Made by a program: the position numbers and the translations under genes. Below are positions 27,799 to 56,298 of a DNA stretch of 64,000 nt, in pieces. Location of the stretch: the NCBI GenBank assembly GCA_000004695.1, contig CM000151.3, forward strand, positions 1,504,001 to 1,568,000, written 5' to 3'. The stretch comes from Dictyostelium discoideum. Lineage: Eukaryota. The notes beneath the pieces were generated by a model, which was not told where the DNA came from, did not search any database, and saw only the letters and a program-made list of their open reading frames with translations. Each line of letters opens with the position of its first letter. Within the stretch, counting starts at the first letter, position 1.

Positions 27799-27833
<35 letters not shown>

Positions 27834-28046: not shown

Positions 28047-28107
28047 GTCCAAACACTAACAAAAAAGGAAAAAAAACAAAAAAAATGGGTCAAATCCTTT
28101 TGTTAAA

Positions 28108-28154
<47 letters not shown>

Positions 28155-28190
28155 GAGTTGTATTTTTATTTTATTAATTTTTATTAAATT

Positions 28191-31420: not shown

Positions 31421-34400
31421 ATGAATATTAAATTAAATAATAATGATCAATATAGTGACAGAGATGTTGCAATTATTGGTATTGGCTTTAGGTTACCAGG
31501 TAATAGTAATCGTGGAACAGAATTATGGCAAAATTTATTGAATGGATTTGATGGTATCGTTGAAACATCTGATAGATGGTCAGATTCTTTTAAAGATTTA
31601 GGTGAAATTCATTGTAAAGATGCCGGTTTAGTAGAGTTGGAGGATTGGGAGTCCTTTGATCCAATTCATTTTGGTATTAATCCTGCCGAAGCTAAACAAA
31701 TTGATCCACAACAAAAACTATTATTAAAATCAACATGGGAAGCTTTTGAAGATGCTGGAATTGATCCATTATCATTACGTGGTACATATACAAGTGTATT
31801 CGTTGGAGCATCTTCTTCTGATTATTCAACATCAATGGCAGAGAATTATGAAAAGCCAAACTTTAATGTTTTCAATTCAACAACTGGTAGTATTGCAAAT
31901 AGAATATCATATTGTTTTGATTTTCGAGGTCCATCATTAACTGTCGATACTGCATGTTCAAGTAAGTATTTCTTTTTTTTTTTTCTTTTTTAAAAAGGAA
32001 AGGGTCTAATATTTATATATATATATATTTTTTAAAAAAAAAGGTTCATTAAATGCATGTTTATTAGGTTACAAATCAATTATTGATGGCGAATGTAATT
32101 ATTCAATCGTATCGGGTTGTAATTTTATATTCAATCCAAATATTAGTAGAGGATTTACAACTATTAATATCATTGGTAAAAGTGGTAGATGTAAAGCATT
32201 CGATGAATCAGCTGATGGTTTTGTACGTGCCGAAGGTGTTGCAGTGTTAATATTAAAAAAGTTATCGATGGCAATCAATGATGGTGATCAAATTTATTCA
32301 ATCATTCGTGGTGGTAATTCAAATGTTGATGGTACATTAAATAAAGGTAATTTTATGAAACCATCAAAATCTGCACAATCAAATAATATCATTAAGGCAT
32401 TTGAATCAACAAATGGATCCATTGGACCATCTGATATTGATTTCTTTGAATTACATGGTACTGGTACACCAACAGGCGATCCGATTGAAGTAGAAGCAGT
32501 TTCAGATATTTTTAAGTCTGTCAAATCAAGTTCAAATCCATTATTAATTGGCTCAATTAAATCAAATATTGGTCATTTAGAACCAGCATCGGGTGTTGCA
32601 TCATTAATGAAAATTTGTTTAATGTTTAAACATCGTCAGTTTATTAAAAACATTCATTTTAATAAACCAAATGGTGACATTAAATTTGAAGAATGGAAAG
32701 TTAAAGTATGTACAGAGAATACACCATTCCCACAAAACAAACAAGTATCAATTGCAATCAATAGTTTTGGTATTACTGGTTCAAATGTTTGTTTGCTATT
32801 AAGTGAATATACAAACCAATCTAATGAGGCATCACCATCTACATCATCAACATTATCGCATCAAAATGATATTAAATATTTAATACCAATTTCAGCAAAT
32901 TCCAAAAAATCATTAGATGATATTAAAGAAGATTTAATTAATAATTCATCAGAATTATCAAAGAATTTACCATTTAAAGATTTTATTATAATCAAGTTTA
33001 TTCAAAATCAACAACATTAATCCAAAGATCAGTTATTTTTGCAAATGATTGGAATGATTTAAATTCAAATACTCAAATCATATCAACCAAAGGTAACATG
33101 TCTGGTAATATTGTAAAATCTGCAGGGGACGGTAATAACCAAAATGATCAAGATAATATTCTAGTGTATGTATTTTGTGGCCAAGGACCTCAATGGAATA
33201 AAATGGGCAATCAACTTTATAAAAATTCACCAAAATTCAAAGAAACAATGGATTTAATCGATTCAATACTTGAAAAACATTTTAAATACTCAATTCTATC
33301 AAAATTAAGATCAATCCAAGATGATGATAAAATTAGCATTAATGAACCAACAACGGCACAATCATCAATTTTAATGATTCAAATATCATTATTTGAATTA
33401 TATAAACATTGGGGTATTATACCAACAATCATCGTAGGTCATTCAATTGGTGAAATATCAGCAGCCTATTGTTCAGGTATGATTAACTTAGAAACAGCTT
33501 GTGAAATCATTTACAAAAGAAGTGTACTTCAAAAACAAACAGTTGGATTAGGTAAAATGTTAGCAATTGGATTAAATGAAAAACAATTTAAAGATCAATT
33601 TTCATCATCATTAAAATATTCAAATATCGAAATTTGTTGTTACAATTCACCATCATCAATTGTTGTTTGTGGTGATGAAATTGAATTAGAAAAAATATCA
33701 AATTCATTAAAAGAAAAACAAATATTTTCATTTTTATTAGGATCACCATCACCATACCATTCATCAAAACAAGAATTAATTAATGATCAGGTTTTAGAAT
33801 CAACCAGTAATATTAAATCAAACAAACCAAACATTCCAATATTTAGTACAGTAACAGGTGAATTATTCGAACTTGACCAAGACAATCAATTCAATTCTCA
33901 ATATATTTATGATAATATAAGAAATGCAGTATTATTTGAAAAAGCAATTGAAAACATTTTCAAATACATTGAAACAAATAATCTTGGTAAAAATATTCAA
34001 TTTTTAGAATTATCACCTCATCCAACATTATCACATTATTTAAAAGAGATGATAGCAGTAACAACGACAACAACATCAGATTACTTTCAACAACAATCAA
34101 TATCAGTTCTATCATCATTAACAAGAAATAAAAAGAATCAAAATCAAAATCAACAAAATGAAATGAATCAAATATTAAAATCAATTTCAGAATTATATTG
34201 TAATGGTTTTAATAATGTTAATTTTAAAAGTCAATTAAATGAACCAAGCAGAAATGAAACTATTGAATTTAAAAAAGCATCTTATTATTTACCACATTAT
34301 AAATTTGATGATGGAATTTATTTCACTCAATCACAATCATCATCAAATTATAAAAAGAATGGTTTTTCAACTAATCAATTAGGTATTCGTAATGAACAAT

Positions 34401-37400
34401 CACCATTTATATCATATACATCATTAATTGATATTGCAGAAGAACCATTTAGATTTTTAAAAGGTCACGCAGCAAAAGGTAAAGCATTATTTCCAGGTTG
34501 TGGTTATATTGATAATGTTTTAAGAGCATTCCCAAATAAAGATTTAACAATTAACAGTATGGAATTTAAATCACCATTACAACTATTTGAAGGAGTTAAA
34601 CAATGTTTAACCACAAACATTTATTCAAGTGGTAAAAATGAATACAGAGTTGTATTCAATTATAAAGATAATAAAACTGGTAAATGGATATTATCTGCCT
34701 ATGGTAGATTTACAATAAACAAACATAGTAGTGGTAGTAGTGGTAATATTAGTCAACCTAAAAAAGTTGATATTAATAAATATATTGAAAAATGCAATTA
34801 TACAAAAATTACAAAAAAAGATATTTATGAAGGTGTTAAATTAAAATTACAATTACATTTAACAGGACCATTCCAAATTATTGAAGAGGCATCATATGGT
34901 GACAGTCGTGGATTCTATAAAGTATCATTAAAGGATCCAATATCGAGTTATGACAATCAATTATTTTTAAATGTTTGTATACTTGATGCTTGTTTTCATT
35001 CAATGGCAACGGGTAAAGATAATCAAAATTTAACATTATTCGATAAGGTAGTGAATGGTCAGTTCTATTTCGATAATATTCCAAAATCAGCAATAGAAAG
35101 AGAACAATACCAATATTTATATTGTTATTCTAGATTAATTGCTCAAGTTGGTGATTCACTTTTCGCTAAAATTGTATTAATGTTACCAGATGGAACTGTA
35201 CTATTTAAAACACCATGTGCAGTTTACACTGAAATTAATTCAACAAATAATCAATATAAATTAGAATATCCAAATAATAATTTATATTCAATTGAAAAGC
35301 AATTAATTGATTCTCAATTAAACTCACCATTAATTCAATTTAATCAAATTATTAATTCTTTAGAAAATAATAATAATAATACATACCAATCATTAATTTT
35401 ATTTTATTTATATTCAATTATTAAAAATAATAATAATAATGATTTAACATTAGAAATAATAAATGAAAGTTCAACCGATCAATTAGTTAAAAGTTATTTT
35501 AAAATTAGTGATGATGAAAATGATATAGGAATAATTAATTTATTAAAATCAATATTTGAAATTTTAAAATCAAATATTAATACTTTATTCAAATGTAACA
35601 ATAGTGAAGTAAATAATAAATTAGAAATTAATCAAAAAGATAGTGAAACAATTAATGAATTGATCAAGTTTTTAGTGAATAATAATAAAGAACAACAAGA
35701 ACAACAATTATATACTCCTTATATAAAACAAAATGATATTATTAAAGATATTATAACAAATTCAGTTAAACCAATTTTAAATGAAAAAATTAAATTTAGA
35801 ATATTAGAGATTGGTTGTGGTATTGGTTTATTATCAGAAATCATTATCAATCAAATAAATTTATTATTTAAAGAGAATCCATTATCAGAAATTAGTATCG
35901 AATTCACTTATTCAGATTCAACATTTATACAAGCTGTTAAAGATAAAATTCAACAAATGATTCCAGAATCAACATTATTATCATTTAAAACTTTATTTAA
36001 TACAATTAATGTAAATGAAGATTTATTAGATCAAAATTTCAAACCATCTTATTATGATATTATTATTGTTAATGGTGTTAATTATTTAAATAAAGATAAA
36101 CAACTCAATTCAACAATCAACAATATTAATCAAATTTTAATTTCAAATGGTTATTTAATTATAATGGATACACATTATAAATCAAAAGTAGTCGATAAAC
36201 AAATTGAATTATATGAACAATGGTTATCATTTAATTTTAAATCAAAAAACAACAACAATAATAATAGTTTAACAAATGAACAATGGAATAATTTATTAGT
36301 TAATAAATTAAAATTTAAAGAATTCATATCAACATCATATGAACCATATTTATTAATTGTTCAAAAACCAACAATTGATGAAATCGTATTATCGACTCCA
36401 CAAAATATATCAAAGTTAATATCATCATATGATCAAATTATTAAATTTGATTCAAATTTAGGTCACAAAGATAATATAATTTCAGATATGCTAAACGATG
36501 GTAGTTTTGGTCTTTTAAGAATTACATCAATTGAAGAATTTGAAAAACATGTTGAAGCAAATCCATTGACAGATAGTTCGTTAATTCTTTTCTTTAGTTC
36601 AGTTAACGATTTAAATGAAATTAATTTTAATGAAATTACATTTGAATATATTAAAATCAACCAACATTTATTAAAAACCAAATGTAAATGTAAACATATA
36701 TTAGTTTCAAAGAATTCTCAAACATCTGCTGACGATGAAAATACATGTTCAAACTATTTAGGTACTTCAGTAATTGGTGCATTTAAATACTTTACCGAAT
36801 TTATAGATTTAAATATTTATGCAATTGATTATGGTTCAGATATTTATGAAATTAATTTAAATGATTTAATACTTCATAATGAATTAACAAATCCTTTAAA
36901 ACATATACAAAGAGAATATATTATAAGAGATAATAAAATATATTATGAATTTATAAAGTTAGAATCAAATATTAAAATGAAATATAAATCAAATTCATTC
37001 ATTCAAGATACAAATCAATTAGTATCAAAGATTGTTCCTCAAACATTAGAATTTAAATTATTAGCAAAAAGAGAATTAAAAGAAGATGAAGTCGAAGTTA
37101 AGGTTTTAGCAAGTGGTATTAATTTTAAAGACAATTTAATCTATCGTGGTTTAGTACCAAAAGAAGCAACAAATGAAATAGGTGACTCAACTGATCCACA
37201 AATTGGTTTCGAATGTTCAGGTATTATCACTAGAATTGGTAAAAAAGTAAATAAATTTAAAATTGGTGATTCAGTATTAGGTACTTGTTTTCATACAATG
37301 GCATCACATGTAAATTCAAATCAAGACAGATTTGTATTAAAACCAGATTGTTTATCATATGTCGAAGCTGCTTCAATTCCATTGGTTTATATCACATCAT

Positions 37401-40400
37401 ATTATTCATTATTGGTTCAAGGTGGTCTAAATTTAGAAAGAAATGATGAAGAGACTGTTTTAATTCATTCAGGTACAGGTGGTATAGGTTTAGCAGCAAT
37501 TGAAATATTAAAAGCAATTGGATTTAAATCATTATTATTCGTTACAGTTGGTTCAAAAGAAAAAGAACAATTTTTAAGAGATAGATATGGTTCATTTATA
37601 ACTGAAATTTATTCAACTAGAAACATTGACTATGTTAAAGATATAAAAAAGAAAATTAAAGAAATTAAAAAAGGTAAAGGTAAATTACTCACTCAATATG
37701 GTACATTATCATATGGAGTTGATTTAATTTTAAATACTTTATCAATTGAATTTATGGAATCAAATTTTTTACTTTTAAATCAAGGTGGTCGTATCGTTGA
37801 TTTATCAATCACCCATTTATCAACAACTGAAACAACTGATTATAATAAATTTAAATATTTCGTTGGTTATTCAACTGTTGAAGTAGTATCATTAGGTTTC
37901 TCAAAAGTTAAAGACTCACTTCAAATTGTTGTCAATATGATTAAAGATGGAAAATTAAAATTATTACCAATTATTGAATATCCAGTTAGTGAAATTAAAA
38001 ATGCAGTAGAGTATATTAGTGAAAGAAAACATATTGGTAAAATCGTTGTAAATTTTCAAACTACAAAAGATTTAGTACAAGATATAATTATTAAATCAAA
38101 TAATTCATTTGAAAATAATTATCTATTCCAATCACCTCAATACAATTTAAATAATACAACATTTGGTAATACTATATTAATTACTGGTCAAAAAGGATTA
38201 TCATTAACAATTATTAAATGGATATTATATTATTATCCAAATCAAGATAATAATACCAATAATAGTTTTATTAAAGATATAATAGTTTTATCAAAATCAA
38301 CAATTAATTATGAATTAGAAATTGAAATTGGAAGAGCAAGAAAAAAAGGATTAAAAACAAATATTCATTTTAAACAAGTTGATATTTCAAACAAAAATCA
38401 ATTATTCGAATCAATTGATGAATTATATAAATCAAATAAAGAATTAAAACCAATTGAAACTATATTCCATAATGCATTCGTACCAGTACAATCAGAACCT
38501 GAAGATATTGATTTACAACAATTAGTTGATTCACATGGTGCAAAAATAATTGGCGCAACCAATTTATATGATTATATTACATCAAAAGCTATGGTATTAA
38601 AGAACTATATAATTTCAGCATCAGCAACTTCTATAATGGGTTCAACAAGACAATGTGGTTATTGTTGTGCAAATGCAGTAATTGATTCATTCTCGAAATA
38701 TTTAAGAAGAAAAGGAATTCAATGTTTTTCACTAAAATATTCTCCAATTGAACAAAGTGGATATGTTGCAAGAAATGAATCTGTTGAAAAGCTATTAGCT
38801 TCAACTGGTTTAAATTCAATTTCAATTGGTACAGTTTTAGGTTCAATCGATTTAGCATTACAAAATCAAGATCAACTTAATAATAAATGTATTGTAGGTT
38901 TTGATTTCAAATTATTTTCTAAAAGACCAAATCATCTTCGATATATATTAGATTTCTACACCAATCAATATCAATCAAATAATGATGAATCTAATGATAA
39001 TGACGAATTTTCAATCAAAGATCAAATTTTAAACAAATTTTCAGAGTTATTACAAATTGAAGTTTCAAAGATTAATTTAGATATTAAAATGGTCGACTAT
39101 GGATTAGATTCATTAACAGTTGTAAATTTAAAAACATACTTGGATCAACAATTTTCATTTGGTCCAAATGTTTTATCAATTTCTCAAATTCAAAAAATTA
39201 CAATTGATCAATTATTGAATATTGTAAAAAATGAATTAAATAAAAAATCGAATTATAAAAATAATAATAATAATAAGAAATCAAATCAAAATAAACACAA
39301 ACAAATAATAGGTTCAACAATTAAGTGGGAAAATGAAATAAAATTAGATGATTCAATAATAGTAGATTTAAATGAAGATCAAATTAAAAATTATGAAAAC
39401 AATATTAATAATGAAAATGAAAATATTGTATTATTAACAGATGCAACCAGTTTTATTGGTATTTATTTATTATATGATTTAATAATTTTAGGAAATTATA
39501 AAAATGTTTATTGTTTATTAAATAATAACAATTCAAAAGAAGAAGGATTTAAAACAATCATTCAACTATTAAAAGAATACAAATTATTTGATAAATTAAC
39601 AAATGATCAAATTAATAAAATTGAAATTGTATGTGGTCACTACTCAAAAGAACAGTTTGGAATATCAAATGAAGATTATAATAACTTATCAAATCAAGTT
39701 AATATTATTTTAAATTGTGCAACTGATAGAAATTTAAATAAAAAGTATGAAGAATTTAATGAACAATTAGAAGGTATAAACCAATTTGTTAAATTTTCAT
39801 TCAATAATAAAATTAAGAAATTATTTCATTTATCAGCAATCGGGGTATACCAAGAAGATCCAAATACTGATGATGATTATTATTTACCACCATTGGAATC
39901 AATTGATAATATTAAATCTGGATATTTACAAAATAGAATTGTTCAAGAATATCGTTTAAGAAATGCAAATAAAATTCATGGATTACCAATAATGATAATT
40001 AGATTACCATTTTTATTCTCTGATGATAGTACAGGTATTGGTAGAGATAATGATGTAATTATGCTATTATTACAATCATGTTATATAATGAATACATGGC
40101 CATCAGATTTAGAGAATCAATTATTAAATTTAATACCTGTAACATTTGCAAGCAAATCAATATCATCAATTATTTCATCATTAAATGTTTGGAATCAATG
40201 CAAATCATTATCACCAATTAATAATTTAATTACATTTAATTTAGTTACAAATCAAATTTGTTTAGGTACCATTATGAATCAATTATCAAATGATCTTGGT
40301 TGGCGTAAAATTTCAACATTACAATTCATTAAAAAATTAGATATTTATGATAATGAATCTTGTAAAACATTATCATCTTTTATAAATAAAAAACTTTTCT

Positions 40401-40549
40401 TTAGTTTCTTATCTGTTGATGGTCAGTATAATTTTAATCAAGTTGTCAAAAATGAATTAATTTCAAATAATATATTTAATGGTTATAATGTTGATAAAAA
40501 TTCAATAATCAAACATTTAAGTTATACTTTTAAAAAGAAAATATTTTAA
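31421..40549 (+). CDS. Highly reducing type I iterative polyketide synthase (PKS-A), about 3015 aa if one frameshift is corrected. Exon 1 is 31421..31961, the intron is 31962..32043 (GTAAGT...AAAAAG), and exon 2 is 32044..40549. Approximate domains: KS 31430..32900, AT 33170..34050 (GHSIGE), DH about 34250..35100 (HAAKGKALFPGCGY), cMT about 35700..36400 (LEIGCGIGLLSE), ER about 37050..38050 (LIHSGTGGIGLAAIE), KR about 38150..38900 (ILITGQKGLSL), ACP about 39030..39240 (DYGLDSLTVVNLK), and a C-terminal reductase-like NAD_binding_4 domain 39420..40549.
   Basis: KS N-terminus DVAIIGIGFRLPG and active site DTACSSSL are split by the intron in phase 1. All motifs were read from the translation. There is a 1-bp deletion relative to PKS-B at about 32985 (tttattat versus tttatttat). 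It shifts the frame from 0 (ORF 32244..33020) to 2 (ORF 33098..40549). Confidence 0.8.
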
Positions 40550-43500
40550 ATTAAATATTAATAAATATTATTAAAAAATAAAAAACAAACTTTAAAATGT
40601 TTAAAATATTATCCGTATCTTCATTTTTTTTTTTTTTTTGAATCAGATAATGCAATTGTTGCTTCTCCTTAAGATATTTGTTCTCATTTTATTTAAGAGT
40701 TTATAATTCGATAGGCCTTAATTTTTATACATCCTTAAGATGCTGTTTTTTTTTTTTTTGTCTTTAATTTATACATAATAAATTAAAAAAAAAAAAATTA
40801 AAAAAAATAATATATTCGAACTACACTGTTATCAGTCTAAAATAATCCAATTTCTAAACACAAAATATCATTTTGTGTGTGAGATTTTAAATAGATTTTT
40901 TTTTGGGTCGAAATGATAATAGTTTTTTTAAAAAAAAGGTGTTAAAAAAAAAGAATCCGTTTTTTTTGAAAAGATTTTTTTTTTTTAAAAAAAGGTGGTG
41001 TAAAAAAAAAAAGAATTTTTTATTTGTTTTATTGTAATATAATCTTTTTTGCAAATAAGATTTTTTTTTTTAAGAAAAAAAAAAAAGATTTTTCTGGTGA
41101 GGCAAACGTCAAAAAAATTACTTTCACTTTAATTATTAGTTAGTTTTTTTTTTTATATCTGCAAATTAAATAATCTTTTATCAAGTAACACTAATAATTG
41201 CACTTTTTTTAAATCTTCAAAAAAAAATTTTAATCTCTTTCAAAGATTAATAAACAATCACTTTTTATTGTAAGTGTCTTTTGAAAAAAAAAAAAAAAAA
41301 AAAAAAAGAAAAATCTATTTTCATTTAATAAAAAAATAAAATAATTTATTTTCATTCTATTAAACAAAAAAACTATTCTATTTTAAATATTATTATTAAT
41401 TAAATTTAATATTTATTTTTAATTAATTATTTGTTTTTTTTTTTTTCCCATATATATAATGGATATTAAATTAAAAAATAATGATAAATATAGTGACAGA
41501 GATGTTGCGATAATTGGTATTGGCTTTAGATTACCAGGTAATAGTAATCGTGGAACAGAATTATGGCAAAATTTATTGAATGGATTTGATGGTATCGTTG
41601 AAACATCTGATAGATGGTCAGATTCTTTTAAAGATTTAGGTGAAATTCATTGTAAAGATGCTGGTTTAGTAGAGTTGGAGGATTGGGAGTCCTTTGATCC
41701 AATTCATTTTGGTATTAATCCTGCCGAAGCTAAACAAATTGATCCACAACAAAAACTATTATTAAAATCAACATGGGAAGCTTTTGAAGATGCTGGAATT
41801 GATCCATTATCATTACGTGGTACATATACAAGTGTATTCGTTGGTGCATCTGCTTCTGATTACTCAACATCGATGCCAGAGAATTATGAAAAGCCAAACT
41901 TTAATGTTTTCAATTCAACAACTGGTAGTATTGCAAATAGAATATCATATTGTTTTGATTTTCGAGGTCCATCATTAACTGTCGATACTGCATGTTCAAG
42001 TAAGTATTTCTTTTTTTTTTTTCTTTTTTAAAAAGGAAAGGGTCTAATATTTATATATATATATATTTTTTAAAAAAAAAGGTTCATTAAATGCATGTTT
42101 ATTAGGTTACAAATCAATTATTAATGGAGAGTGTAATTATTCAATCGTATCAGGTTGTAATTTTATATTCAATCCCCATATTAGTAGAGGATTTACAACT
42201 ATTAATATCATTGGTAAAAGTGGTAGATGTAAAGCATTCGATGAATCAGCTGATGGTTTTGTACGTGCCGAAGGTGTTGCAGTGTTAATATTAAAAAAGT
42301 TATCAATGGCAATCAATGATGGTGATCAAATTTATTCAATCATTCGTGGTGGTAATTCAAATGTTGATGGTACATTAAATAAAGGTAATTTTATGAAACC
42401 ATCAAAATCTGCACAATCAAATAATATCATTAAAGCATTTGAATCAACAAATGGATCCATTCAACCATCCGATATTGATTTCTTTGAATTACATGGTACT
42501 GGTACACCAACAGGCGATCCGATTGAAGTAGAAGCAGTTTCAGATATTTTTAAGTCTGTCAAATTAAGTTCAAATCCATTATTAATTGGCTCAATTAAAT
42601 CAAATATTGGTCATTTAGAACCAGCATCGGGTGTTGCATCATTAATGAAAATTTGTTTAATGTTTAAACATCGTCAGTTTATTAAAAACATTCATTTTAA
42701 TAAACCAAATGGTGACATTAAATTTGAAGAATGGAAAGTTAAAGTAAGTACAGAGAATACACCATTCCCACAAAACAAACAAGTATCAATTGCAATCAAT
42801 AGTTTTGGTATTACTGGTTCAAATGTTTGTTTGCTATTAAGTGAATATACAAACCAATCTAATGACGCACTTACCATAACATCATCAACATCACCAACAT
42901 TATCAAATGATTTTAAATATTTAATACCAATTTCAGCAAATTCCAAAAAATCATTAGACGATATTAAAGAAGAGTTAATTAATAATTCATCAGAATTATC
43001 AAAGAATTTACCATTTAAAGATTTTATTTATAATCAAATTTATTCAAAATCAACAACATTAATCCAAAGATCAGTTATTTTTGCAAATGATTGGAATGAT
43101 TTAAATTCAAATACTCAAATCATATCAACCAAAGGTAACATGTCTGGCAATTTTGTAAAATCTGCCGAGGATGGTGGTAACCAAAATGATCAAAGCAATG
43201 ATAATATTCTTGTTTTTGTATTTTGTGGCCAAGGACCTCAATGGAATAAAATGGGCAATGAGCTTTATAAAAACTCACCAAAATTCAGAGAAACAATGGA
43301 TTTAATCGATTCAATTTTTGAAAAACATTTTAAATACTCAATTCTATCAAAATTAAGATCAATCCAAGATGATGATAAAATTAGCATTAATGAACCAACA
43401 ATGGCACAATCATCGATTTTAATGATTCAAATATCATTATTTGAATTATATAAACATTGGGGTATTATACCAACAATCATTATAGGTCATTCACTTGGTG

Positions 43501-44024
43501 AAATATCAGCAGCCTATTGTTCAGGTATGATTAACTTAGAAACAGCATGTGAAATCATTTACAAAAGAAGTACACTTCAAAAACAAACAGTTGGATTAGG
43601 TAAAATGTTAGCAATTGGATTAAATGAAAAACAATTTAAAGATCAATTTTCATCATCATCAAATGTTGAAATCGTTTGTTACAATTCACCATCATCAATT
43701 GTTGTTTGTGGTGATGGAATTGAATTAGAAAAAATATCAAATTCATTAAAAGAAAAACAAATATTTTCATTTTTATTAGAATCACCATCACCATACCATT
43801 CATCAAAACAAGAATTAATTAAAGATCAAGTTTTAGAATCAACCAATAATATTAAATCAAACAAACCAAACATTCCAATATTTAGCACAGTAACAGGTGA
43901 ATTATTCAAACTTGGCCAAGACAATCAATTTAATTCTCAATACATATATGAAAATACTAGAAATGCAGTATTATTTGAAAAAGCAATTGAAAACATTTTC
44001 AAATACATTGAAACAAATAATCTT

Positions 44025-44160
44025 GGTAAAAATATTCAATTGGTAAAAATATTCAATTGGTAAAAATATTCAATTGGTAAAAATATTCAATTGGTAAAAA
44101 TATTCAATTGGTAAAAATATTCAATTGGTAAAAATATTCAATTGGTAAAAATATTCAATA
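44025..44160. repeat. Tandem array of a 17-bp unit ggtaaaaatattcaatt: 7 perfect copies plus 1 terminal variant. It sits at the deletion/inversion junction inside PKS-B.
   Basis: Units begin at 44025, 44042, 44059, 44076, 44093, 44110, 44127 and 44144. The unit is present once in the intact paralog (PKS-A 34012..34028, ..cttggtaaaaatattcaatttttag..). Confidence 0.9.
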
Positions 44161-44693
44161 TTGTAAATTTACCATGTGCAGATAATATCCATTTACCAGT
44201 TTTATTATCTTTATAATTGAATACAACTCTATATTCATTTTTACCACTTGAATAAATGTTTGTGGTTAAACATTGTTTAATTCCTTCGATTAATTGTAAT
44301 GGTGATTTAAATTCCATACTATGAATTGTTAAATCTTGGTTTGGGAATGCTCTTAAAACATTATCAATATAACCACAACCTGGAAATAATGCTTTACCTT
44401 TTGCTGCGTGACCTTTTAAAAATCTAAATGGTTCTTCTGCAATATCAATATATGATGTATATGATATAAATGGTGATTGTTCATTACGAATACCAAGTTG
44501 ATTAGTTGAAAAACCATTCTTTTTATAATTAAATACCGATTGTGATTGAGTGAAATAAATTCCATCATCAAATTTATAATGTGGTAAATAATAAGATGCT
44601 TTTTTAAATTGAATAGTTTCATTTCTGCTTGGTTCATTTAATTGACTTTTAAAATTAACATTATTAAAATGACAATTTTCATATATGTATTGA
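44161..44693 (-). other. Inverted (minus-orientation) fragment of the PKS DH-domain coding sequence inside PKS-B.
   Basis: Reverse-complement translation gives ...NEPSRNETIQFKKASYYLPHYKFDDGIYFTQSQS..FRFLKGHAAKGKALFPGCGYIDNVLRAFPN.DLTI.SMEFKSPLQL.EG.KQCLTTNIYSSGKNEYRVVFNYKDNKTGKWILSAHGKFTI. It is collinear with PKS-A 34190..34715. Confidence 0.85.
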
Positions 44694-47600
44694 CAATTAT
44701 ATACTCCTTATATAAAACAAAATGATATTATTAAAGATATTATAACAAATTCAGTTAAACCAATTTTAAATGAAAAAATTAAATTTAGAATATTAGAGAT
44801 TGGTTGTGGTATTGGTTTATTATCAGAAATCATTATCAATCAAATAAATTTATTATTTAAAGAGAATCCATTATCAGAAATTAGTATCGAATTCACTTAT
44901 TCAGATTCAACATTTATACAAGCTGTTAAAGATAAAATTCAACAAATGATTCCAGAATCAACATTATTATCATTTAAAACTTTATTTAAAACTATTAATA
45001 TAAATGAAGATTTATTAGATCAAAATTTCAAACCATCTTATTATGATATTATTATTGTTAATGGTGTTAATTATTTAAATAAAGATAAACAACTCAATTC
45101 AACAATCAATAATATCAATCAAATTTTAATTTCAAATGGTTATTTAATTATAATGGATACACATTATAAATCAAAAGTAGTCGATAAACAAATTGAATTA
45201 TATGAACAATGGTTATCATTTAATTTCAAATCTAACAACAACAACAATAATGATAATTTAACAAATGAACAATGGAATAATTTATTAGTTAATAAATTAA
45301 AATTTAAAGAATTCATATCAACATCATATGAACCATATTTATTATTTGTTCAAAAACCAACGATTGATGAAATCGTATTATCAAGTCAACAAAAGATATC
45401 AAAGTTAATATCATCATATGATCAAATTATTAAATTTGATTCAAATTTAGGTCACAAAGATAATATAATTTCAGATATATTAAATGATGGTAGTTTTGGT
45501 GTTGTAAGAATTACATCAATTGAGCAATTTGAAAAACATGTTGAAACAAATCCATTGACAGATAACTCGTTAATTCTTTTCTTTAGTTCAGTTAACGATT
45601 TAAATGAAATTAATTTTAATCAAGTTACATTTGAATATATTAAAATCAATCAATATTTATTAAAGACCAAATGTAAATGTAAACATATATTAGTTTCAAA
45701 GAATTCTCAAACATCTGCTGACGATGAAAATACATGTTCGAATTATTTAGGTACTTCAGTAATTGGTGCATTTAAATACTTTTCAGAATATATTGATTTA
45801 AATATATATTCAATCGATTATGGTTCAGATATTTATGAAATTAATTTAAATGATTTAATACTTCATAATGAATTAACAAATCCTTTAAAACATATACAAA
45901 GAGAATATATTATAAGAGATAATAAAATATACTATGAACATTTAAAATTAGAATCAAATATTAAAATGAAATATAAATCAAATTCATTCATTAAAGATAC
46001 AAACAAATTAATGACAAAAGTTGAACCTCAAACATTAGAATTTAAATTATTAGCAAAAAGAGAATTAAAAGAAGATGAAGTCGAAGTTAGGGTTTTAGCA
46101 AGTGGTATTAATTTTAAAGACAATTTAACTTATCGTGGTTTAGTACCAAAAGAAGCAACAAATGAAATAGGTGATTCAACTGATCCACAAATTGGTTGGG
46201 AATGTTCAGGTATTATCACTAGAATTGGTAAAAAAGTAAATAAATTTAAAATTGGTGATTCAGTATTAGGTACTTGTTTTCATTCAGTAGCATCACATGT
46301 AATTACAAATCAAGATAGATTTGTATTAAAACCAGATTGTTTATCATATGTCGAAGCTGCTTCAATTCCATTGGTTTATATCACATCATATTATTCATTA
46401 TTGGTTCAAGGTAATTTGGATTTTGAGGGTGATGAAGAGACTGTTTTAATTCATTCAGGTACAGGTGGTATAGGTTTAGCAGCAATTGAAATATTAAAAG
46501 CAATTGGATTTAAATCATTATTATTCGTTACAGTTGGTTCAAAAGAAAAAGAACAATTTTTAAGAGATAGATATGGTTCATTTATAACTGAAATTTATTC
46601 AACTAGAAATACTGACTATGTTCAAGATATAAAAAAGAAAATTAAAGAAATTAAAAAAGGCAAAGGCAAATCACTCACTCAATATGGTACCTTATCATAT
46701 GGAGTTGATTTAATTTTAAATACTTTATCAATTGAATTTATGGAATCAAATTTTTTACTTTTAAATCAAGGTGGTCGTATCGTTGATTTATCAATCACCC
46801 ATTTATCAACAACTGAAACAACTGATTATAATAAATTTAAATATTTCATTGGTTATTCAACTGTTGAAGTTATGACACCAAGTTTCTCAAAAGTTAAAAA
46901 AACACTTCAAATTGTTGTCAATATGATTAAAGATGGAAAATTAAAATTATTACCAATTATTGAATATTCAGTTAGTGAAATTAAAAATGCAGTAGAGTAT
47001 ATTAGTGAAAGAAAACATATTGGTAAAATCGTTGTAAATTTTCAAACTACTGAAAATGTAGTACAAGATTCAATTATTAAATTAAATAATTCATTTGAAA
47101 ATAATTATCTATTCCAATCACCTCAATACAATTTAAATAATACAACATTTGGTAATACTATATTAATTACTGGTCAAAAAGGATTATCATTAACAATTAT
47201 TAAATGGATATTATATTATTATCCAAATCAAGATAATAATACCAATAATAGTTTTATTAAAGATATAATAGTTTTATCAAAATCAACAATTAATTATGAA
47301 TTAGAAATTGAAATTGGAAGAGCAAGAAAAAAAGGATTAAAAACAAATATTCATTTTAAACAAGTTGATATTTCAAACAAAAATCAATTATTCGAATCAA
47401 TTGATGAATTATATAAATCAAATAAAGAATTAAAACCAATTGAAACTATATTCCATAATGCATTCGTACCAGTACAATCAGAACCTGAAGATATTGATTT
47501 ACAACAAATTATTGATTCAAATAGTGCAAAAACAATTGGTGCAATCAATTTATATGATTATATTAGTTCAAAAGCTATGGTATTAAAGAATTATATAATT

Positions 47601-50600
47601 TCATCATCAATGGCATCTGTAATGGGTTCAACAAGACAATGTGGTTATTGTTGTGCAAATGCAGTAATTGATTCATTCTCGAAATATTTAAGAAGAAAAG
47701 GAATTCAATGTTTTTCATTAAAATATTCAATAATTGAACAAAGTGGATATGTCGCAAGAAATGAATCTGTTGAAAAGCTATTTACAACCACTGGTTTAAA
47801 TACTATTTCAATCGGTACAGTTTTAGGTTCAATCGATTTAGCATTACAAAATCAAGATCAACTTAATAATAAATGTATTGTAGGCTTTGATTTTCAACTA
47901 GTTTCTAAAAGATCAAATCATCTTCAATATAAATTAGATTTCTATACCAATCAATATCAATCAAATAATGATGAATCTAATGATAATGATGAATTTTCAA
48001 TCAAAGATCAAATTTTAAATAAATTTTCAGAGTTATTACAAATTGAAGTTTCAAAGATTAATTTAGATATTAAAATGGTCGATTATGGATTAGATTCATT
48101 AACAGTTGTAAATTTAAAAACATACTTGGATCAACAATTTGTAATCGGACCAAATGTTTTATCAATTTCTCAAATTCAAAAAATTACAATTAATCAGTTA
48201 ATTAATTTTGTAAAAAATGAATTAAATAAAAAATCAAATTATAAAAATAATAATAATAATTTAAATAAAAATAAGAAATCAAATCAAAATAAACAGAAAC
48301 AAATAATAGGTTCAACAATTAATTGGGAAAATGAAATAAAATTAGATGATTCAATAATAGGTTTAAATGGAAATCAAATAATTTTTAATAATGAAAATGA
48401 AAATATTGTATTATTAACAGATGCAACTAGTTTTATTGGTATTTATTTATTAAATGATTTAATAATTTTAGGAAATTATAAAAAAGTTTATTGTTTAATA
48501 AATAATAACAATTCAAAAGAAGAAGGATTTAAAACAATCATTCAACTATTAAAAGAATACAAATTATTTGATAAATTAACAAATGATCAAATTAATAGAA
48601 TTGAAATTGTATGTGGTCACTACTCAAAAGAACAATTTGGAATATCAAATGAAGACTATAATAACTTATCAAATCAAGTTAATATTATTTTAAATTGTAC
48701 AACTGATAGAAATTTAAATAAAAAGTATGAAGAATTTAATGAACAATTAGAAGGTATAAACCAATTTGTTAAATTTTCATTAAAAAATAAAATTAAGAAA
48801 TTAATTCATTTATCAGCAATTGGAGTTTATCAAGAAGATCCAAATACTGATGATGATTATTATTTACCACCATTGGAATCAATTGATAATATTAAATCTG
48901 GATATTTACAAAATAGAATTGTTCAAGAATATCGTTTAAGAAATGCAAATAAAATTCATGGATTACCAATAATGATAATAAGATTACCATTTTTATTCTC
49001 TGATAATAACACAGGTATTGGTAGAGATAATGATATTGTTATGCTATTATTACAATCTTGTTATCTAATGAATACATGGCCATCGGAATTAGAGAATCAA
49101 TTTTTAAATTTAGTACCGGTAACATTTGCGAGCAAATCGATATCATCAATAACCATATCTTCAAATGTTTGGAATCAATGTAAATCATTATCACCAATTA
49201 ATAATTTAATTACATTTAATTTAATTGTTGATCATATTTCTTTTGGTACCATTATGAACCAATTATCAAATGATCTTGGTTGGCGTAAAATTTCAACATT
49301 ACAATTCATTAAAAAATTAGATATTTATGATAATGAATCTTGTAAAACATTATCATCATTCATAAAGAATCAAAATTTCTTTAATAGTTTATCTATTGAT
49401 GGTCAGTATAATTTTAATCAAGCTATCAAAAATGAATTAATTTCAAAAAATATATTTAATGGTTATAATGTTGATAAAAATTCAATAATCAAACATTTAA
49501 GTTATACTTTTAAAAAGAAAATATTATAAACTAAATATAAAAAAATTAAAAAAACACAGTCAAAGGTTTGTGTTTTTTTATTTTTTATTAATTAAAATCA
49601 AGTTTTTTTTTTTTTTTTTTTTTCGCCATTTTTAAAATTTTTTTTTTCTTTCTTTTTTTTATTTATTTTCTTATTCTTTTAAATAGACACTGGAGAAGTT
49701 TTGTTTTTTTTTTGATGAATAAAAAAAAAAAAAATAAAAAATTTAAAAAAAAAAAACCATCATTGAAACTAAGGGTAAAAGTATTACTTTTAAATTCAAA
49801 ATAAAAAATAAAAATAATACCAAATAAAATAAAACCACAACCAAAAATAAAAAAAAAAAAAATTAAAAATTAATTTAATGAAATTTTGTAAAATTAAATT
49901 CGATAAATTAATTTTTAATTTTATATCTAATTCTAAACTTTAGATTTTTACCAAACCAGCATAACTCAATTTTATAAAATTCTTTATACTTTTTTTTTTT
50001 TTAAAAACTTCTCAAATATATTTTTTTTTTTATAATACCCATACCACTTCAGCACCTTGTGAATATATTTTTTTTTTCTAATAATATAAAAAAAATTTTA
50101 ACACATCCAAATTGATCAGTTTTCTCAAAATGGCTAAATTTTTGATCAAAAAAAAAAAAAAAAAAGCATTGGAGTATAGGTTGTTTGGTTACCCCTAAGT
50201 AAATTGGGTGAAAAAAAAAAAGTAGTTTGGTATTACTGAACACACAATGTTGTGTTTACATATAAATATATAATAAAAAAATAATAATTAAAAAAAAAAA
50301 TAATTAAAAAAAAAATAATTAAAAAAAAAATAATTAAAAAAAATTATATAATTGAAAAAAAAAAAAAAAAAGAACACCACACCCAAAATAATTTTCTTTC
50401 TTTTAAAAAAAAAAATTAATTATAAACAATAAATAAACATTAAGAGAAAGAAAATTAAAAAAAGAAAATAAATATCGCATCAGGGAAATCACCGATGCAA
50501 TTTTCGTCATCAAAACAATCAAAAAATAAATTTTTTAAAAAATTCACAAAAAAAAAAAATTTCAAAAACCAAAATTTTTTTTTTTTTTTTTTTTTTTTTA

Positions 50601-50644: not shown

Positions 50645-51097
50645 ATGAATAAACTCGACATGGACGCATGTCAAATTTATGATCCTGAAGAGTTTGATGC
50701 ATGTAGGTGTGAAGAAATTTATTATAGTAGTAGTTCAAATGGTGATATTATTAATCCACAAGCAATCAGCGATCTAATCTTCAATGCTTTTCAAAATTTA
50801 GAAATTCATAATCCTGTGTGGGCAGAACGAGCTATTGAAATACTCAAAACAGTATATGAAGATACAAATAATTTTCTTTCTCGAAAAAATCTAGATTGTG
50901 GTAATGAATTTAAGGTTGCAATTACTAATCTAATACGTTGTCTCGAAATAAGGAAAAATTTAACCAGTTTTTTCGATTCATTGGATGATTTAATATCAAT
51001 ATTACAAGAGCTTGCTGAAGTACTCCCTCAAGATTATTGGGATTTTATAGATGCTATTGAAGGTGTTTTGATTGGCCTCTTTGAAATTCCAGATTAA
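50645..51097 (+). CDS. Hypothetical acidic protein, 150 aa, single exon, of unknown family. It has no signal peptide and no low-complexity run.
   Basis: Clean ORF MNKLDMDACQIYDPEEFDACRCEEIYY...EVLPQDYWDFIDAIEGVLIGLFEIPD. Its codon composition is less AT-skewed than the flanking intergenic DNA. No recognisable motifs. Confidence 0.5.
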   Translation: MNKLDMDACQIYDPEEFDACRCEEIYYSSSSNGDIINPQAISDLIFNAFQNLEIHNPVWAERAIEILKTVYEDTNNFLSRKNLDCGNEFKVAITNLIRCLEIRKNLTSFFDSLDDLISILQELAEVLPQDYWDFIDAIEGVLIGLFEIPD

Positions 51098-51449: not shown

Positions 51450-53501
51450 TTAAATATTTTTTAAGTTATCATAAAGTGAATTAATAAAATTACCAGAACA
51501 TAATTTTAAATTATTATTTTTAATTAAATTTTCAAAACACAATTGATTTTCAATTATATTATAATTATTATAATATGTGTAAATTGTTGTTGATTTTGGT
51601 AATGGAAATTTAAATTTACACATAGCACTAAATAAAATTAAATGATTAATTGATGGTTTTAACCAATCACTTGATATTGTACCTTGAAAAGTTGGACCTA
51701 ATGATAAACAAGTTAAAGAATCTGGTAAATTTGGTAGATTTAATTGATTTAATGGTTGATTTAATTTTAAAGAACGTAATGAATTTGGAAATATTTTAAA
51801 ATCTATAACTTCTTGAATACCATAACCTAATTCAATATTTGTTAATGTATTTGGAAATATTACTCTACTAATTGGATGCTTAAAATGGTAATCAAATATT
51901 ATTGATTTTAAATTTTTCATATTCATAAATACTTTTGGTGTTAATTTTTCATTTTTATAACTTGAAAATTTAATTGATACAATTGATGTTGAAAAGTGAT
52001 CACATTCAAATTGATCTTTAAAATGACTCGTAATTGTTAACGATCTTAATGAGTTACATTTTATTAAACATTGATTATATGGACCTTCATATTGTGTTAA
52101 ATTTAATAATTGATTTGAAAATAGTGATGTTAAAGATTGTTCTTCTGATAAATGTATTTTTGAATGTTGAGGTTGTAATTCTGGTGAAACCAATTTTGGT
52201 TCTATAATTTTCAATGATTTAATTGAAGTTGGTAAATCATCATATTGTAATAAAAGTTTTTTAGTATATAATAAAACGTATGTTAATTCTAACGATTCAA
52301 GATTCTTTAAAAATGGTTTTAAATTTCTGAGTGATTGACTACAACTAATTGATAAATGTTTTAAAGTTGTCGGTATTGATTTAATGGGGGATTTAAAACA
52401 ATGTTCACCAAAAATTAAAGTTTCCAATGATGGCGGTAACTCATCAACTTCTAATTGATGATTGAATTTACAATCAATTGAAAATATTAATTCTTTTAAT
52501 GAGTTTGGAAGTGTAAATTTTTTAAATTTCTTATCAAATTCTCTACCAATATAAAGCTTTTCTAATTTATTTGTATTTAAAAAACAATAGTTATTTAAAG
52601 ATTTATTAAATGATTCACCAAATTTTAAAACTTTTAATTCTTTTGGTAATACATTCTTTCCAATTTCACAATTAAAATGATAACCAAATTCTAAAAAAGT
52701 AATTGATGATGGTAAACAACCTTCATTAATCTCTGTATTAAATGAATCACCAAATGTTAAACTTGTTAAACTATTTGGTAATAAACCCCTAAATAACTTT
52801 TCATTATAAAAATCTGCAAATAACAATTCTTTTAAATTATTTGGTAATTTTTTAATTTCACATTTATGATAATTACTATATCCACTTTTATTCTTTTGAC
52901 CAAAATCTAAATATCTTAATTTATTTGATGATTCATTAATACTACCATTACCACTACCATTGCCACTACCATTACCATTACCATTGCCACTACCATTACC
53001 ACTACCATTGCCACTACAATTACCACTACCACCTTCTAAAGATTGAATAAATGGTATAGTTTTAAAAGATAATTGATCATTTAAAATTAAAGATTTTATA
53101 TTTGAATGAATTGAATCATTTGAAAATGATGAATAAAATGAACCAACAAATTCTAGTGATGTTACTGAACGAGGTATGAACCCAGATTTAAAAATATTTG
53201 CTGATGGTCGATGTGAACTATTTTCAATTTCAACTGTATCAATATTCTCTGGTAATGATTCTAATATTGATAATACTCTTTGAAGATTATTTATATTTTT
53301 TTTACCACCAATAAAAAAATAAACCCTTTTCAAATACATTTTATATGGATAGTTTAACCAATATTGATATTCTTTATCTGTATTTATTTTGAAATCAACC
53401 CTATTAAAATTATTTAAAAAAATCATTTCCTTAAATATAAGATTTCTAATATATACATTTCTCCATAGTAAAAAAAATAAAAAATCATTATTATTTTCCA
53501 T
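51450..53501 (-). CDS. FNIP-repeat-containing protein, 683 aa, single exon, with an internal (GSGN)n low-complexity run.
   Basis: Repeated units of about 22 aa of the form LP.SL..L.FG..FN..I..G.LP (for example LPNSLTSLTFGDSFNTEINEGCLPSSITFLEFGYHFNCEIGKNVLPKELKVLKFGESFNKSL). The GSGNGSGNGSGNGNGNGSGNGSGNGS block is encoded at about 52920..53010. Confidence 0.75.
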   Translation of the reverse strand: MENNNDFLFFLLWRNVYIRNLIFKEMIFLNNFNRVDFKINTDKEYQYWLNYPYKMYLKRVYFFIGGKKNINNLQRVLSILESLPENIDTVEIENSSHRPSANIFKSGFIPRSVTSLEFVGSFYSSFSNDSIHSNIKSLILNDQLSFKTIPFIQSLEGGSGNCSGNGSGNGSGNGNGNGSGNGSGNGSINESSNKLRYLDFGQKNKSGYSNYHKCEIKKLPNNLKELLFADFYNEKLFRGLLPNSLTSLTFGDSFNTEINEGCLPSSITFLEFGYHFNCEIGKNVLPKELKVLKFGESFNKSLNNYCFLNTNKLEKLYIGREFDKKFKKFTLPNSLKELIFSIDCKFNHQLEVDELPPSLETLIFGEHCFKSPIKSIPTTLKHLSISCSQSLRNLKPFLKNLESLELTYVLLYTKKLLLQYDDLPTSIKSLKIIEPKLVSPELQPQHSKIHLSEEQSLTSLFSNQLLNLTQYEGPYNQCLIKCNSLRSLTITSHFKDQFECDHFSTSIVSIKFSSYKNEKLTPKVFMNMKNLKSIIFDYHFKHPISRVIFPNTLTNIELGYGIQEVIDFKIFPNSLRSLKLNQPLNQLNLPNLPDSLTCLSLGPTFQGTISSDWLKPSINHLILFSAMCKFKFPLPKSTTIYTYYNNYNIIENQLCFENLIKNNNLKLCSGNFINSLYDNLKNI

Positions 53502-53877
53502 AAATTTTTAGTTTTTTAAAATTTATTGTTAGAAAAAAAAAAAAAAAAAAAAAAGTATAAAAAATTGATTATAAAAATTTATTTTTAGAAAAAAAAAAAA
53601 AATGAAAAATAAAAAAAATAAAAAAAAAAACCAAAATAAAAATAAAAATAAAAATTAAAAAAGAGGTGGTTTTTTTACTTAAAAAATTAATAACGACGGT
53701 TACAAACTTGGTTTGTTTCAGATTTTTTTTTTTTTTTTTAGTTTTATTTTTATTTGTTGATTTATTTTTAGATATTTTTGTTTTTTATTTACTTAAAATT
53801 TTTTGACTTTGTATAAACCAGATATTTTTATTATTATTTTACAAATCAAAAAAAAAAATTTCTTCTTTTTTTTAACC

Positions 53878-55973
53878 CTATAAAATTTCGGTTAAAAAAA
53901 AAAAGATAAAAAAAAACAATTGGATAAATAAAAATAAAAAATATAAAAATAAAAAAAAAAATATTATTATTAATGTGCAATTATTATTAATATTTATTTT
54001 AATTTCTTTTTTTTTATCATAAATTGAATTAATAAAATTATCAGAGCATATTTTTAAATTATTATTTTCAATTAAATTTTCAAAATAAAATTGATTTTCA
54101 ATGACATTATAATTATTAAAAGATATGTAAATTGTTGTTGATTTTGGTAATGGAAATTGAAATTTACAATCAACACACAATAAAATTAAATGATTAATTG
54201 ATGGTTTTAACCAATCACTTGATATTGTACCTTTGAAATTTGAACCTAATGATAAACAAGTTAAAGAATCTGGTAGATTTGGTAACGTTAATTGATTAAA
54301 TTCAACCAATTTTAAAGAACGTAATGAATTTGGAAATATTTTAAAATCAATGATTTCTTTAATACCAAAACCAAATTCAATATTTGTTAATGTATTTGGA
54401 AATATTATCCCACCAATTTGTTGAATATAATAATGACTACTGAATATCACTGATTATAAATTCTTCATTTTTGTAAAAACCTTGGGGGTTAAATGTTCAA
54501 AGGCAAGGCTTAAAAATTCGATTGATTTAATTAATGACGAAAAGTGATCACATTGATAATGATTTGTGAAATGATTTGTTATCTTTAATGATCTTAATGA
54601 ATTTGATTTTTTTAAAAACAAGTTATATGGACCTTCATAATTTTTTAATTTTAATAATTTATTTGAAAATAGTGAGCTTAAAGATTGATCTTCCAACTGC
54701 ACCTGTTCTTGATTTGAATATGGATGCGACTGTGTTGAGACTAATCTCGGTTCAATTATTTAATGAAAATCAGTATCATTCAATATCCTTCTAACCAAAG
54801 GCACTAAAAATGATGTTAATTCTAATTTTTTAAGATTCTTTAAAAATGGTGATACATTCTCAATTGATTGACTACAATTTATTGATAAATATTTTAAAGA
54901 TATTGGCAAAGACTCAATTTCCGATTTAAAATATCGCTCACCAATAATTAAAGTCTTTAACGATGGAGGTAACACACCAACTTCCAATGGGTGATTGAAT
55001 TTACAGCCAATTGAAAATACCAACTCTTTTAATGATTTTGGGAATGTAAATTCGATAAACTCACCTTGATATTCTCTACCAAGATAAAGTTTCTTCAATT
55101 TATTTCTATTATAAAAACATTGTCTTGTACTTAAAGATTTATTGAATAGTTCACCAAATTTTAATATTTTTAATCTCTTTGGTAATACATTCTTCCCAAT
55201 TTCACAATTAAAATGGTATCCAAATTCTAAATAAGTGATTGACGATGGTAAACAACCTTCACCAATCTCTGTATTAAATGAATCACCAAATGTTAAACTT
55301 GTTAAACTTTTTGGTAGAAATACTTTACCTATCTCTTGATTGAAAAAGTTTGGTAATAACAATACTTTTAAATTTTGTGGTAACCTTTTAACTTCATATA
55401 TACTTTTTTTAAAACTATCTATACTTTTATTCTTTTTACCAAAATCCAAATACTGTAAATGACTACCACCACTACTACTACCACTACAATTGCCACCCTC
55501 TAGACATTCAATAAATGGTATAGTTTTAAAGATAATTGATCATTTAGAATTAAAGATTTTAAATTTGAATGAATTGAATTTTTTGAAAATGGTGAACTAA
55601 ATGAACCAATTAATTCTAGTGATGTTACTGAACGAGGTATGAAGCCAGGATTAAATATATTACATATAGGTATTATTGAATTTGTTTCAATTTCAACTGT
55701 ATCAATATTCTCTGGTAATGATAATAATGTCAATATCAATCTTTGAAGATCAAAAATTCTAAGACCTTGAAAACTAATAAAGAACCTGACCCTTTTCAAA
55801 TAAATTTTATATTTATAATCTAACCAATATTGATATTCTTCATTTGTATTTATTTTGAAATTAACTTTTCTAAATATACTAAATAATTTCAATTCATTGA
55901 TTATAACTTTTCTTAAAACTATATTTCTCCAAATTGAAAAAAATAATTTATCATTATAATTTTCTAAATTCAT
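53878..55973 (-). pseudogene. Decayed tandem paralog of the FNIP-repeat gene. Its coding capacity is split into 4 ORFs by at least one frameshift and two in-frame stops.
   Basis: ORF 55500..55973 (frame 2) matches the N-terminus of the intact paralog (..FFSIWRNIVLRKVIINE..KINTNEEYQYWLDYKYKIYLKRVRFF..LPENIDTVEIE..). ORFs 54760..55449, 54454..54702 and 53878..54450 (all frame 0, separated by stops) match its middle and C-terminus (..IFPNSLRSLKL..LPNLPDSLTCLSLG..ISSDWLKPSINHLIL..). Confidence 0.65.

Positions 55974-56254: not shown

Positions 56255-56298
<44 letters not shown>

Follow-up and report, generated by a model that had tools for sequence, protein, structure and literature searches.

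[quoted passage not shown] The birth of minisatellites by replication slippage, or by serial replication slippage, is likewise a recognised process. Complex rearrangements of the FoSTeS/MMBIR kind have been described (PMC8421209, PMC13065848), as have the iterative templated insertions of polymerase-theta-type end joining in C. elegans, Drosophila, plants and mammals (PMC4032859, PMC5068794, PMC12426944) and, in yeast, the foldback-primed short templated inverted duplications that form at double-strand breaks (PMC11724301). In dictyostelids, polyketide synthase (PKS) genes are known for their rapid turnover (PMC3188802). Here we describe a Dictyostelium PKS gene, PKS-B, a recently killed copy that was probably lost through one compound mutation at the end of its AT domain, most likely made by a polymerase that switched templates serially at a replication fork that had stalled or broken.

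Anatomy of the paralog pair

The window, as we call the whole 64-kb stretch analysed here, is AT-rich amoebozoan DNA with two tandem type I PKS paralogs on the + strand, PKS-A and PKS-B (Table 1). According to Pfam the domain order of PKS-A is KS-AT-DH-MT-ER-KR-ACP-reductase, and the one-frame KS-AT-DH-MT-ER-KR-ACP(-R) order of the Dictyostelium type I iterative PKS is displayed by PKS-A and the orthologues and is lost in PKS-B. An earlier inspection of these letters without database searches (the sequence-only reading) had taken PKS-A to be intact; in the window, however, it carries a frameshifting 1-nt deletion at ~32986 (GATTTTATTATAATC, versus GATTTTATTTATAATC in PKS-B, in the AX2-type assembly L004 and in L003, a divergent isolate deposited as D. 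discoideum under GCA_054859385.1, ACTFIR), which splits the frame into 32244-33020 and 33098-40549. In the AX2-type annotation the deletion is missing and PKS-A is an intact 3015-aa protein, so that the window shows either a frameshift confined to AX4 or an error in the reference. Positions 38256 of PKS-A and 47242 of PKS-B are homologous and lie in the sequence AAGATAATAATA[C]CAATAATAG; the window has C at each of them where the AX2-type assembly has A, a parallel difference that reflects either gene conversion or a systematic sequencing error of one technology.

The PKS neighbourhood is a field of local duplications, in which the flanking genes too form sets of tandem paralogs. Upstream of PKS-A, at 24022-29510, lie three Glyco_transf_17-like ORFs that are ~86-88% identical to the copies in L001 (D. 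cf. discoideum, GCA_054859205.1), and downstream of PKS-B, at 51450-56017, two FNIP-repeat genes are ~80% identical to each other. Between PKS-B and these genes, the 150-aa product of an ORF (50645-51097) matches DDB_G0272164 of D. discoideum AX4 without a difference, and the window is accordingly AX4 DNA, presumably of chromosome 2. Further along, a large ORF on the minus strand includes 6.3 repeats of a 120-bp unit (62505-63273, 64% matches), and the neighbouring gene model in a second assembly of the same lineage, L002, contains many EGF_CA/cEGF domains.

Table 1. Features of the PKS-A and PKS-B genes, in coordinates of the window
Feature	Position	Strand	Details
PKS-A	~31394-40578	+	
Single progenitor-type 17-mer in PKS-A	33986-34002	+	Codes GKNIQF within ..LGKNIQFLELSPHP.., near AT domain end
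PKS-A segment without counterpart in PKS-B (array-inversion gap)	34003-34206	+	204 bp; 196 bp in L003 (2124-2319)
PKS-A segment without counterpart in PKS-B (DH C-terminal part and linker)	34718-35703	+	986 bp; 1003 bp in L003 (2828-3830)
PKS-B	~41434-49554	+	
PKS-B 5' collinear part, as far as array: KS, KS-AT linker and most of AT	41434-44022	+	blastn, Pfam
Filler template TCAATACATATATGAAAAT	43937-43955	+	68-86 bp upstream of array
17-bp tandem array	44023-44159	+	TRF: period 17, 8.1 copies, 100% matches, score 274
Premature stop TAA	44061-44063	+	In third repeat unit, ...LGKNIQLVKIFNW then stop; ends ORF 42282-44063
Inverted 511-bp fragment, N-terminal part of DH (dehydratase) domain	44159-44669	-	blastn
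23-nt junction filler TGACAATTTTCATATATGTATTG	44670-44692	+	Between inverted fragment and resumed collinearity at 44693
PKS-B 3' collinear part (MT-ER-KR-ACP-reductase)	44693-49554	+	blastn to PKS-A 35704-40578, 94.7%; Pfam

The anatomy of PKS-B is established by alignment to its paralog. Positions 41434-44041 match PKS-A 31394-34002 in the same orientation (96.1%, blastn), and by Pfam this part encodes KS-C, KAsynt_C_assoc and an Acyl_transf_1 domain that stops at profile position 256/319. There the array intervenes, after which 44159-44669 matches PKS-A 34717-34207 on the minus strand (95.7%) and L003 2827-2320 (95.9%). The minus-strand frame of this inverted fragment is open over 170 codons, contains an HxxxGxxxxP motif, and matches Pfam PKS_DH_N with E = 2.5e-5 and 24.6 bits, just under the 27-bit cut-off. 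The 3' part that follows has an open frame of 1611 codons (44694-49526). Exact-product look-ups for the 1527-aa downstream ORF and a 59-aa inverted ORF returned no match, and in a protein search none of the matches listed exceeded ~1035 aa or was near-identical to the query. In coordinates of PKS-A the breakpoints fall at 34002/34003, 34206/34207, 34717/34718 and 35703/35704; the sequence-only reading had put two of them at about 34190 and 35705. Relative to PKS-A the net change is thus a deletion-inversion-deletion with 119 bp of repeat and 23 bp of filler added, in which the orientation of one segment is changed and three or four junctions are clustered within 44023-44693. The inverted piece diverges from PKS-A to the same degree as its flanks, and is therefore PKS-B's own DNA. 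With its AT truncated, its DH half inverted and half deleted, and a stop at 44061, PKS-B is, as judged from its sequence, a pseudogene.

The array itself stands out in the window. The 17-mer GGTAAAAATATTCAATT has nine matches, where 0.47 are expected and where none of 100 shuffles reached nine; one lies in PKS-A, and those in PKS-B comprise seven perfect copies at 44025-44143 and a further one matching at 16/17 positions at 44144-44160. In the phase TTGGTAAAAATATTCAA the array consists of 8 perfect units at 44023-44158, the interval 44025-44160 of the sequence-only reading being the other phase. That reading had correctly seen the 17-mer once in PKS-A, coding LGKNIQF, and eight times in tandem in PKS-B, although it placed the PKS-A copy at 34012-34028, 26 nt away from its position in Table 1. 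The seven extra copies amount to 119 bp and shift the reading frame. Among the tandem arrays in the 64 kb this is the only perfect one of a complex unit, the remaining long-period arrays being in-frame coding repeats or A/T low complexity.

In PKS-A, L001 and L003 the progenitor reads C-TT-GGTAAAAATATTCAA-TT-TTTAG, with a TT dinucleotide on both sides of the unit, and the combination of perfect head-to-tail copies with a single-copy, TT-flanked progenitor is that of a minisatellite born by slippage. Single-strand folding indicates some hairpin potential for the array (z = -2.8) and no signal for the single-copy progenitor (z = -0.3). A scan of metagenomes for two adjoining repeat units found none.

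Ancestral state and age of the lesion

The Dictyostelium assemblies compared are presumably the ten Nanopore+Illumina genomes of PMC12745789, and the wild-isolate identities behind ACTFIR, ACTFIW and ACTFIZ are likewise presumed. At the position of PKS-B, L003 has an intact 3014-aa PKS, which is closer to PKS-B (96.4-96.8% identity) than to PKS-A (93.5%) and is therefore the orthologue of PKS-B; it is collinear with PKS-A throughout and contains one 17-mer, at 2107-2123. The same position is occupied by intact gene models in L005 (ACTFIW, 3018 aa) and L006 (ACTFIZ, 3013 aa), the state of the latter being taken from its gene table only, and L005 is collinear across the right breakpoint. The decayed PKS of L001 runs collinear through the left breakpoint, again with one 17-mer, so that both relatives sequenced across the array site (L003 and L001, 2/2) are single-copy and uninverted. 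This establishes the ancestral state, from which it follows that array, inversion and deletions alike are derived features peculiar to the lineage that led to NC4.

The decay of the L001 gene is independent of that of PKS-B, and there is a small inversion there too. In L001, a cryptic sister species, the locus (9291-14666 and 17211-17611) comprises one decayed PKS, with deletions corresponding to PKS-A 34547 to 37175 and 38790 to 39414 and with a 107-bp inverted piece at the 5' end, the reverse complement of window 31862-31968, as well as a 400-bp relic of a second PKS copy.

L002 (GCA_054883475.1) is an independent Nanopore+Illumina assembly from the same lineage as the window, probably of the axenic strain AX2-214. 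Over 20.5 kb it differs from the window almost only in homopolymer lengths, apart from one SNP in PKS-B, and it carries the identical 8 units, inversion and filler; from 42012 to 47241 the two agree throughout. AX2 and AX3/AX4 trace back separately to NC4, a wild isolate, and on this basis the lesion would be older than laboratory culture and the copy number would have stayed at 8 in both. The count of copies that the sequence-only reading had proposed as a check therefore gives 8 in both assemblies of the lineage and no slippage polymorphism, a result that says little because the only two lines carrying the array are closely related and share a recent ancestor. The only substantial non-homopolymer disagreement between the window and the AX2-type assembly lies at 56236-56280, where TAATTATTAATGTTAATGGTAA stands against TTATTATTATTGTTATTGTT in L002 (15589-15620) together with a T-run length difference, which may be a genuine difference between strains or a local error of assembly.

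Apart from the lesion the gene is unblemished, with no other stop or frameshift in the 170 inverted and 1611 downstream codons, and dN/dS against PKS-A is 0.37 in the inverted and 0.39 in the downstream codons. A three-way alignment of PKS-A, PKS-B and L003 assigns 27 synonymous and 20 non-synonymous changes to the PKS-B lineage and 57 and 27, respectively, to the intact L003 lineage, which, with a neutral non-synonymous/synonymous ratio of ~4.1 from site counts, gives an omega of ~0.18 for the former and ~0.115 for the latter. The lack of any other disabling mutation and the purifying selection that acted for nearly all the time since the split establish that the lesion is recent.

One short block departs from this phylogeny. 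The 13-nt block at 44525-44540 (minus strand) reads ATCGGTATTTAAT in PKS-B, ATCGGTATTAAAT in L001 (~11714) and ATCATCATCAAAT in both PKS-A (~34338) and L003 (~2450), a pattern at odds with the overall orthology of PKS-B and L003, which points to gene conversion among the paralogs or to lineage sorting.

Junctions and the route to the rearrangement

At the left junction, ..ATTCAAT|ATTGTAAATTTACC, the last array copy fuses into the inverted DH fragment, as the sequence-only reading had it. The two abut within 1 nt, at most one base (T, 44159) is common to both sides, and the join creates the palindrome CAATATTG. At the corresponding edge of the inverted fragment PKS-A has TTTATTG and L003 TTAGTTG, so the ancestral state of PKS-B is uncertain here and the junction is ambiguous by 1-3 nt.

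On the right, the inverted sequence can be aligned as far as ..ATTATTAAAA (44669), after which the filler follows. Positions 44675-44693 (ATTTTCATATATGTATTGA), identified by k-mer search, are an exact 19/19 reverse complement of 43937-43955, and with two or fewer mismatches this 19-mer occurs in the window only at the template and filler sites, where 0.05 occurrences are expected. PKS-A, L001 and L003 read ATATATTTATG at the template and PKS-B reads ATACATATATG; the two PKS-B-only substitutions responsible (43943 and 43946; ACATATATG in PKS-B versus ATATTTATG in PKS-A, L001 and L003) are both copied in the filler, at 44684 and 44687. Altogether the filler agrees with the template at 5/5 diagnostic positions that separate it from PKS-A, L001, L003 and a similar native sequence, and the templated origin of the 19-mer is thereby established. 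In addition, TGACAATT, the first 8 nt of the filler (44670-44677), recurs at 44691-44698 across the final joint. Read in this way, the far junction is a patchwork of short templated pieces. The sequence-only reading had instead seen there a microhomology, 'caatta', shared with both partners; the actual overlap is 0-3 nt with the 23-nt filler in between, CAATT belonging to the downstream partner and the ACAAT of the inverted partner lying 5 nt past its alignable end.

Two other accounts of the filler were considered and rejected. As a remnant of native sequence it would correspond to the similar L003 2897-2918, in the region deleted from PKS-B, which differs at the diagnostic positions; and extending the inverted fragment through ACAAT to PKS-A ~34194 needs a 3-nt deletion plus substitutions, so that the filler was judged more parsimonious.

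The substitutions at 43943 and 43946 create an 8-bp palindrome, CATATATG, within the 19-nt template, and two changes in 19 nt are more than the roughly 1% of PKS-B-specific divergence predicts. Over the 250 bp that precede the array there are 6 PKS-B-specific changes against ~2.5 expected, a weak excess. Hypermutation near the junctions was rejected, and the dense cluster of five changes in 7 nt at 44531-44537 is common to L001 and hence old. In L003, 2016-2037 and 2897-2918 form an imperfect inverted repeat (19/22), whose first arm is the site of the filler template and whose second lies in the region deleted from PKS-B, 70 nt past the inverted fragment; with 226 inverted pairs in 2 kb, this repeat may have guided the template switch or may be there by chance.

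The microhomology at the successive joints is short throughout: TT (2 nt) for the re-copying of the 17-mer, 1 nt (T) between array and inversion, none between the inversion and the bases TGACA, at most 3 nt (ATT) between TGACA and the 19-mer, and 1 nt (A) between the 19-mer and the downstream sequence, where there is also an imperfect 7-nt match, A-N-AATTA.

Expressed in coordinates of L003, template switching could have produced this structure in five steps. The new strand would have copied the gene forward up to ..ATTCAATT (2123) and then re-copied its last 17 nt seven more times, re-priming each time on the flanking TT. It would next have jumped ~700 bp ahead to the opposite strand and copied 511 bp backwards (2827 to 2320), then skipped ~280 bp further back, still on that strand, to copy the 19 nt from upstream of the array (2037 to 2019), with the five bases TGACA in between having no assigned template. 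Lastly it would have returned to the original strand 1.8 kb downstream, resuming normal copying at 3831. Within 1.8 kb, two strand switches, one same-strand skip and seven re-primings over short distances would thus account for the deletion-inversion-deletion, the templated insertions at both joints, the frameshift and the stop in the third repeat.

Template switching is favoured because ligation of two ends cannot make a 19-nt inverted copy or iterated 17-mers. The sequence-only reading had likewise argued for template switching or slippage over simple NHEJ, a proposal that the 19-nt inverted copy strengthens, even though some of its details were wrong or incomplete. Most likely the pathway was of the FoSTeS/MMBIR type, or a similar iterative synthesis in alternative end joining, flavours that are inseparable here, and for both there are published parallels in templated insertions linked to MMBIR (PMC8421209) and in iterative, patchwork insertions copied from the flanks of breaks (PMC12426944). 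We infer both the identity of the polymerase or pathway and the origin of all parts in one event. The end of the array within 1 nt of the junction, in the sole such array in 64 kb, links the array to the junction; among the genomes compared there is no intermediate allele, either array without inversion or inversion without array, so that a single event is no more than likely. More tentatively, the array may record a polymerase that stalled, re-primed seven times on 2-nt homology and escaped by switching strands, in one serial event; in that case, PKS paralogs of dictyostelids could regularly be lost through events of this kind. In the related isolate L001 the same gene has a small inversion and deletions of independent origin.

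It is rather doubtful that PKS-B instead has two histories, in which a segment freed by two double-strand breaks was resected, flipped and end-joined and the array arose separately by slippage or unequal exchange, either earlier, as a fragile site that then broke at its edge, or later, once the gene was dead. Eight perfect units followed by the inverted fragment, as seen in the phase TTGGTAAAAATATTCAA, fit any order of events, whether the array preceded the inversion, formed along with it or came afterwards. NHEJ typically leaves 0-1 nt of microhomology at its junctions, as here, and Ku/DNA-PKcs-dependent cNHEJ exists in D. discoideum (PMC8701014); the TT..TT flanks permit a first duplication by simple slippage, and the hairpin potential of the formed array, absent from the progenitor, could stall forks. 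Plain NHEJ, however, leaves unexplained how 19 nt from ~720 bp away came to be copied exactly and in inverted orientation, and an independent array within 1 nt of the junction would be very improbable when no other such array exists in the 64 kb. The array alone already frameshifts the gene, so two rare disabling events would have had to strike an otherwise unblemished gene, and 8/8 units are identical, with the same copy number in both assemblies. Inverted-repeat recombination and the action of a site-specific recombinase were rejected as further routes to the inverted segment, since no inverted repeat pairs the breakpoints in the ancestral-type sequence and the flanks were lost (196-204 and 986-1003 bp).

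Far less probable is that the array has a function, each of its units carrying a splice-donor-like GTAAAA, so that the region would be spliced out or the locus would make separate KS-AT and MT-ER-KR-ACP-R proteins. Both flanking ORFs are open, omega in the PKS-B lineage is low, and automatic annotation calls three separate genes at the locus, but the recency of the lesion explains the low omega equally well, the AT domain is cut within its profile, half of DH is inverted and half deleted, and the relatives keep one intact gene of 3013-3018 aa. An assembly or cloning artefact, arising from a chimeric read or from a repeat whose copies were collapsed or multiplied, is hardly credible, since, although short tandem repeats and AT-rich DNA are difficult to assemble and homopolymer lengths often differ between the assemblies, the independent L002 assembly, made with different technologies, has the same array, inversion and filler, and an inverted piece as diverged from PKS-A as its flanks cannot be a misplaced PKS-A read.

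Significance and relation to known systems

Considering what PKS-B adds, it offers, in an amoebozoan, a finely resolved natural case of what is probably a compound mutation by template switching, where sister isolates make the junctions readable to the nucleotide, and it shows the very recent loss, in the standard laboratory lineage, of a member of the fast-turning-over Dictyostelium PKS family. A limited literature search found no description of the PKS-B pseudogene or of such events in Dictyostelium. The case also carries a warning, in that the reference strain is without a PKS that its wild relatives keep, and the sister copy in AX4 may be frameshifted too. For the typing of wild isolates, diagnostic k-mers are available for the unit-unit joint (ATTCAATTGGTAAAA), the array/inversion joint (TTCAATATTGTAAATTTACC), the two filler joints (ATTAAAATGACAATTTTCAT and GTATTGACAATTATATAC) and the ancestral state (ATTCAATTTTTAGAATT). 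The current understanding of mutation mechanisms is left unchanged.

The likeness to FoSTeS/MMBIR lies in breakpoints clustered within 2 kb in cis and in both orientations, in deletions that flank an inversion, and in a short templated insertion from nearby sequence together with small duplications at the junctions. It differs in that the switches of PKS-B used only 0-3 nt of microhomology, that there is no junction-proximal shower of point mutations, that the duplication at the junction runs to seven iterations, an unusually high number, and that the host is an amoebozoan. As in polymerase-theta-type end joining, the insert is a patchwork, direct and inverted, copied from within ~100 bp of a break end, and the 8-nt direct repeat and the seven 17-nt re-copies resemble cycles of annealing, extension and dissociation primed on 1-3 nt. 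Unlike in that pathway, the 19-nt template lies beside the left break while its copy lies at the right junction, and the 511-bp inverted segment is longer than the usual TMEJ fillers.

With the yeast foldback events PKS-B shares an insert in the size class of about 5-34 bp that is inverted relative to a nearby template, whereas in yeast the copied sequence is on the same strand and directly adjoins the 3' end, and here the template is ~720 bp from the insertion site and, in the ancestor, ~1.8 kb from the downstream partner. Like a minisatellite born by slippage, the array is perfect, head-to-tail and built on a unit bounded in its progenitor by a TT direct repeat; unlike one, it is welded to an inversion junction and shows no copy-number difference between the two assemblies. 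Deletion-inversion-deletion with templated insertions at the junctions is a recognised class of complex rearrangement, of which PKS-B is a new example, and what is less usual in it is the seven iterations of the junctional copy and the exact ancestral sequence supplied by sister isolates.
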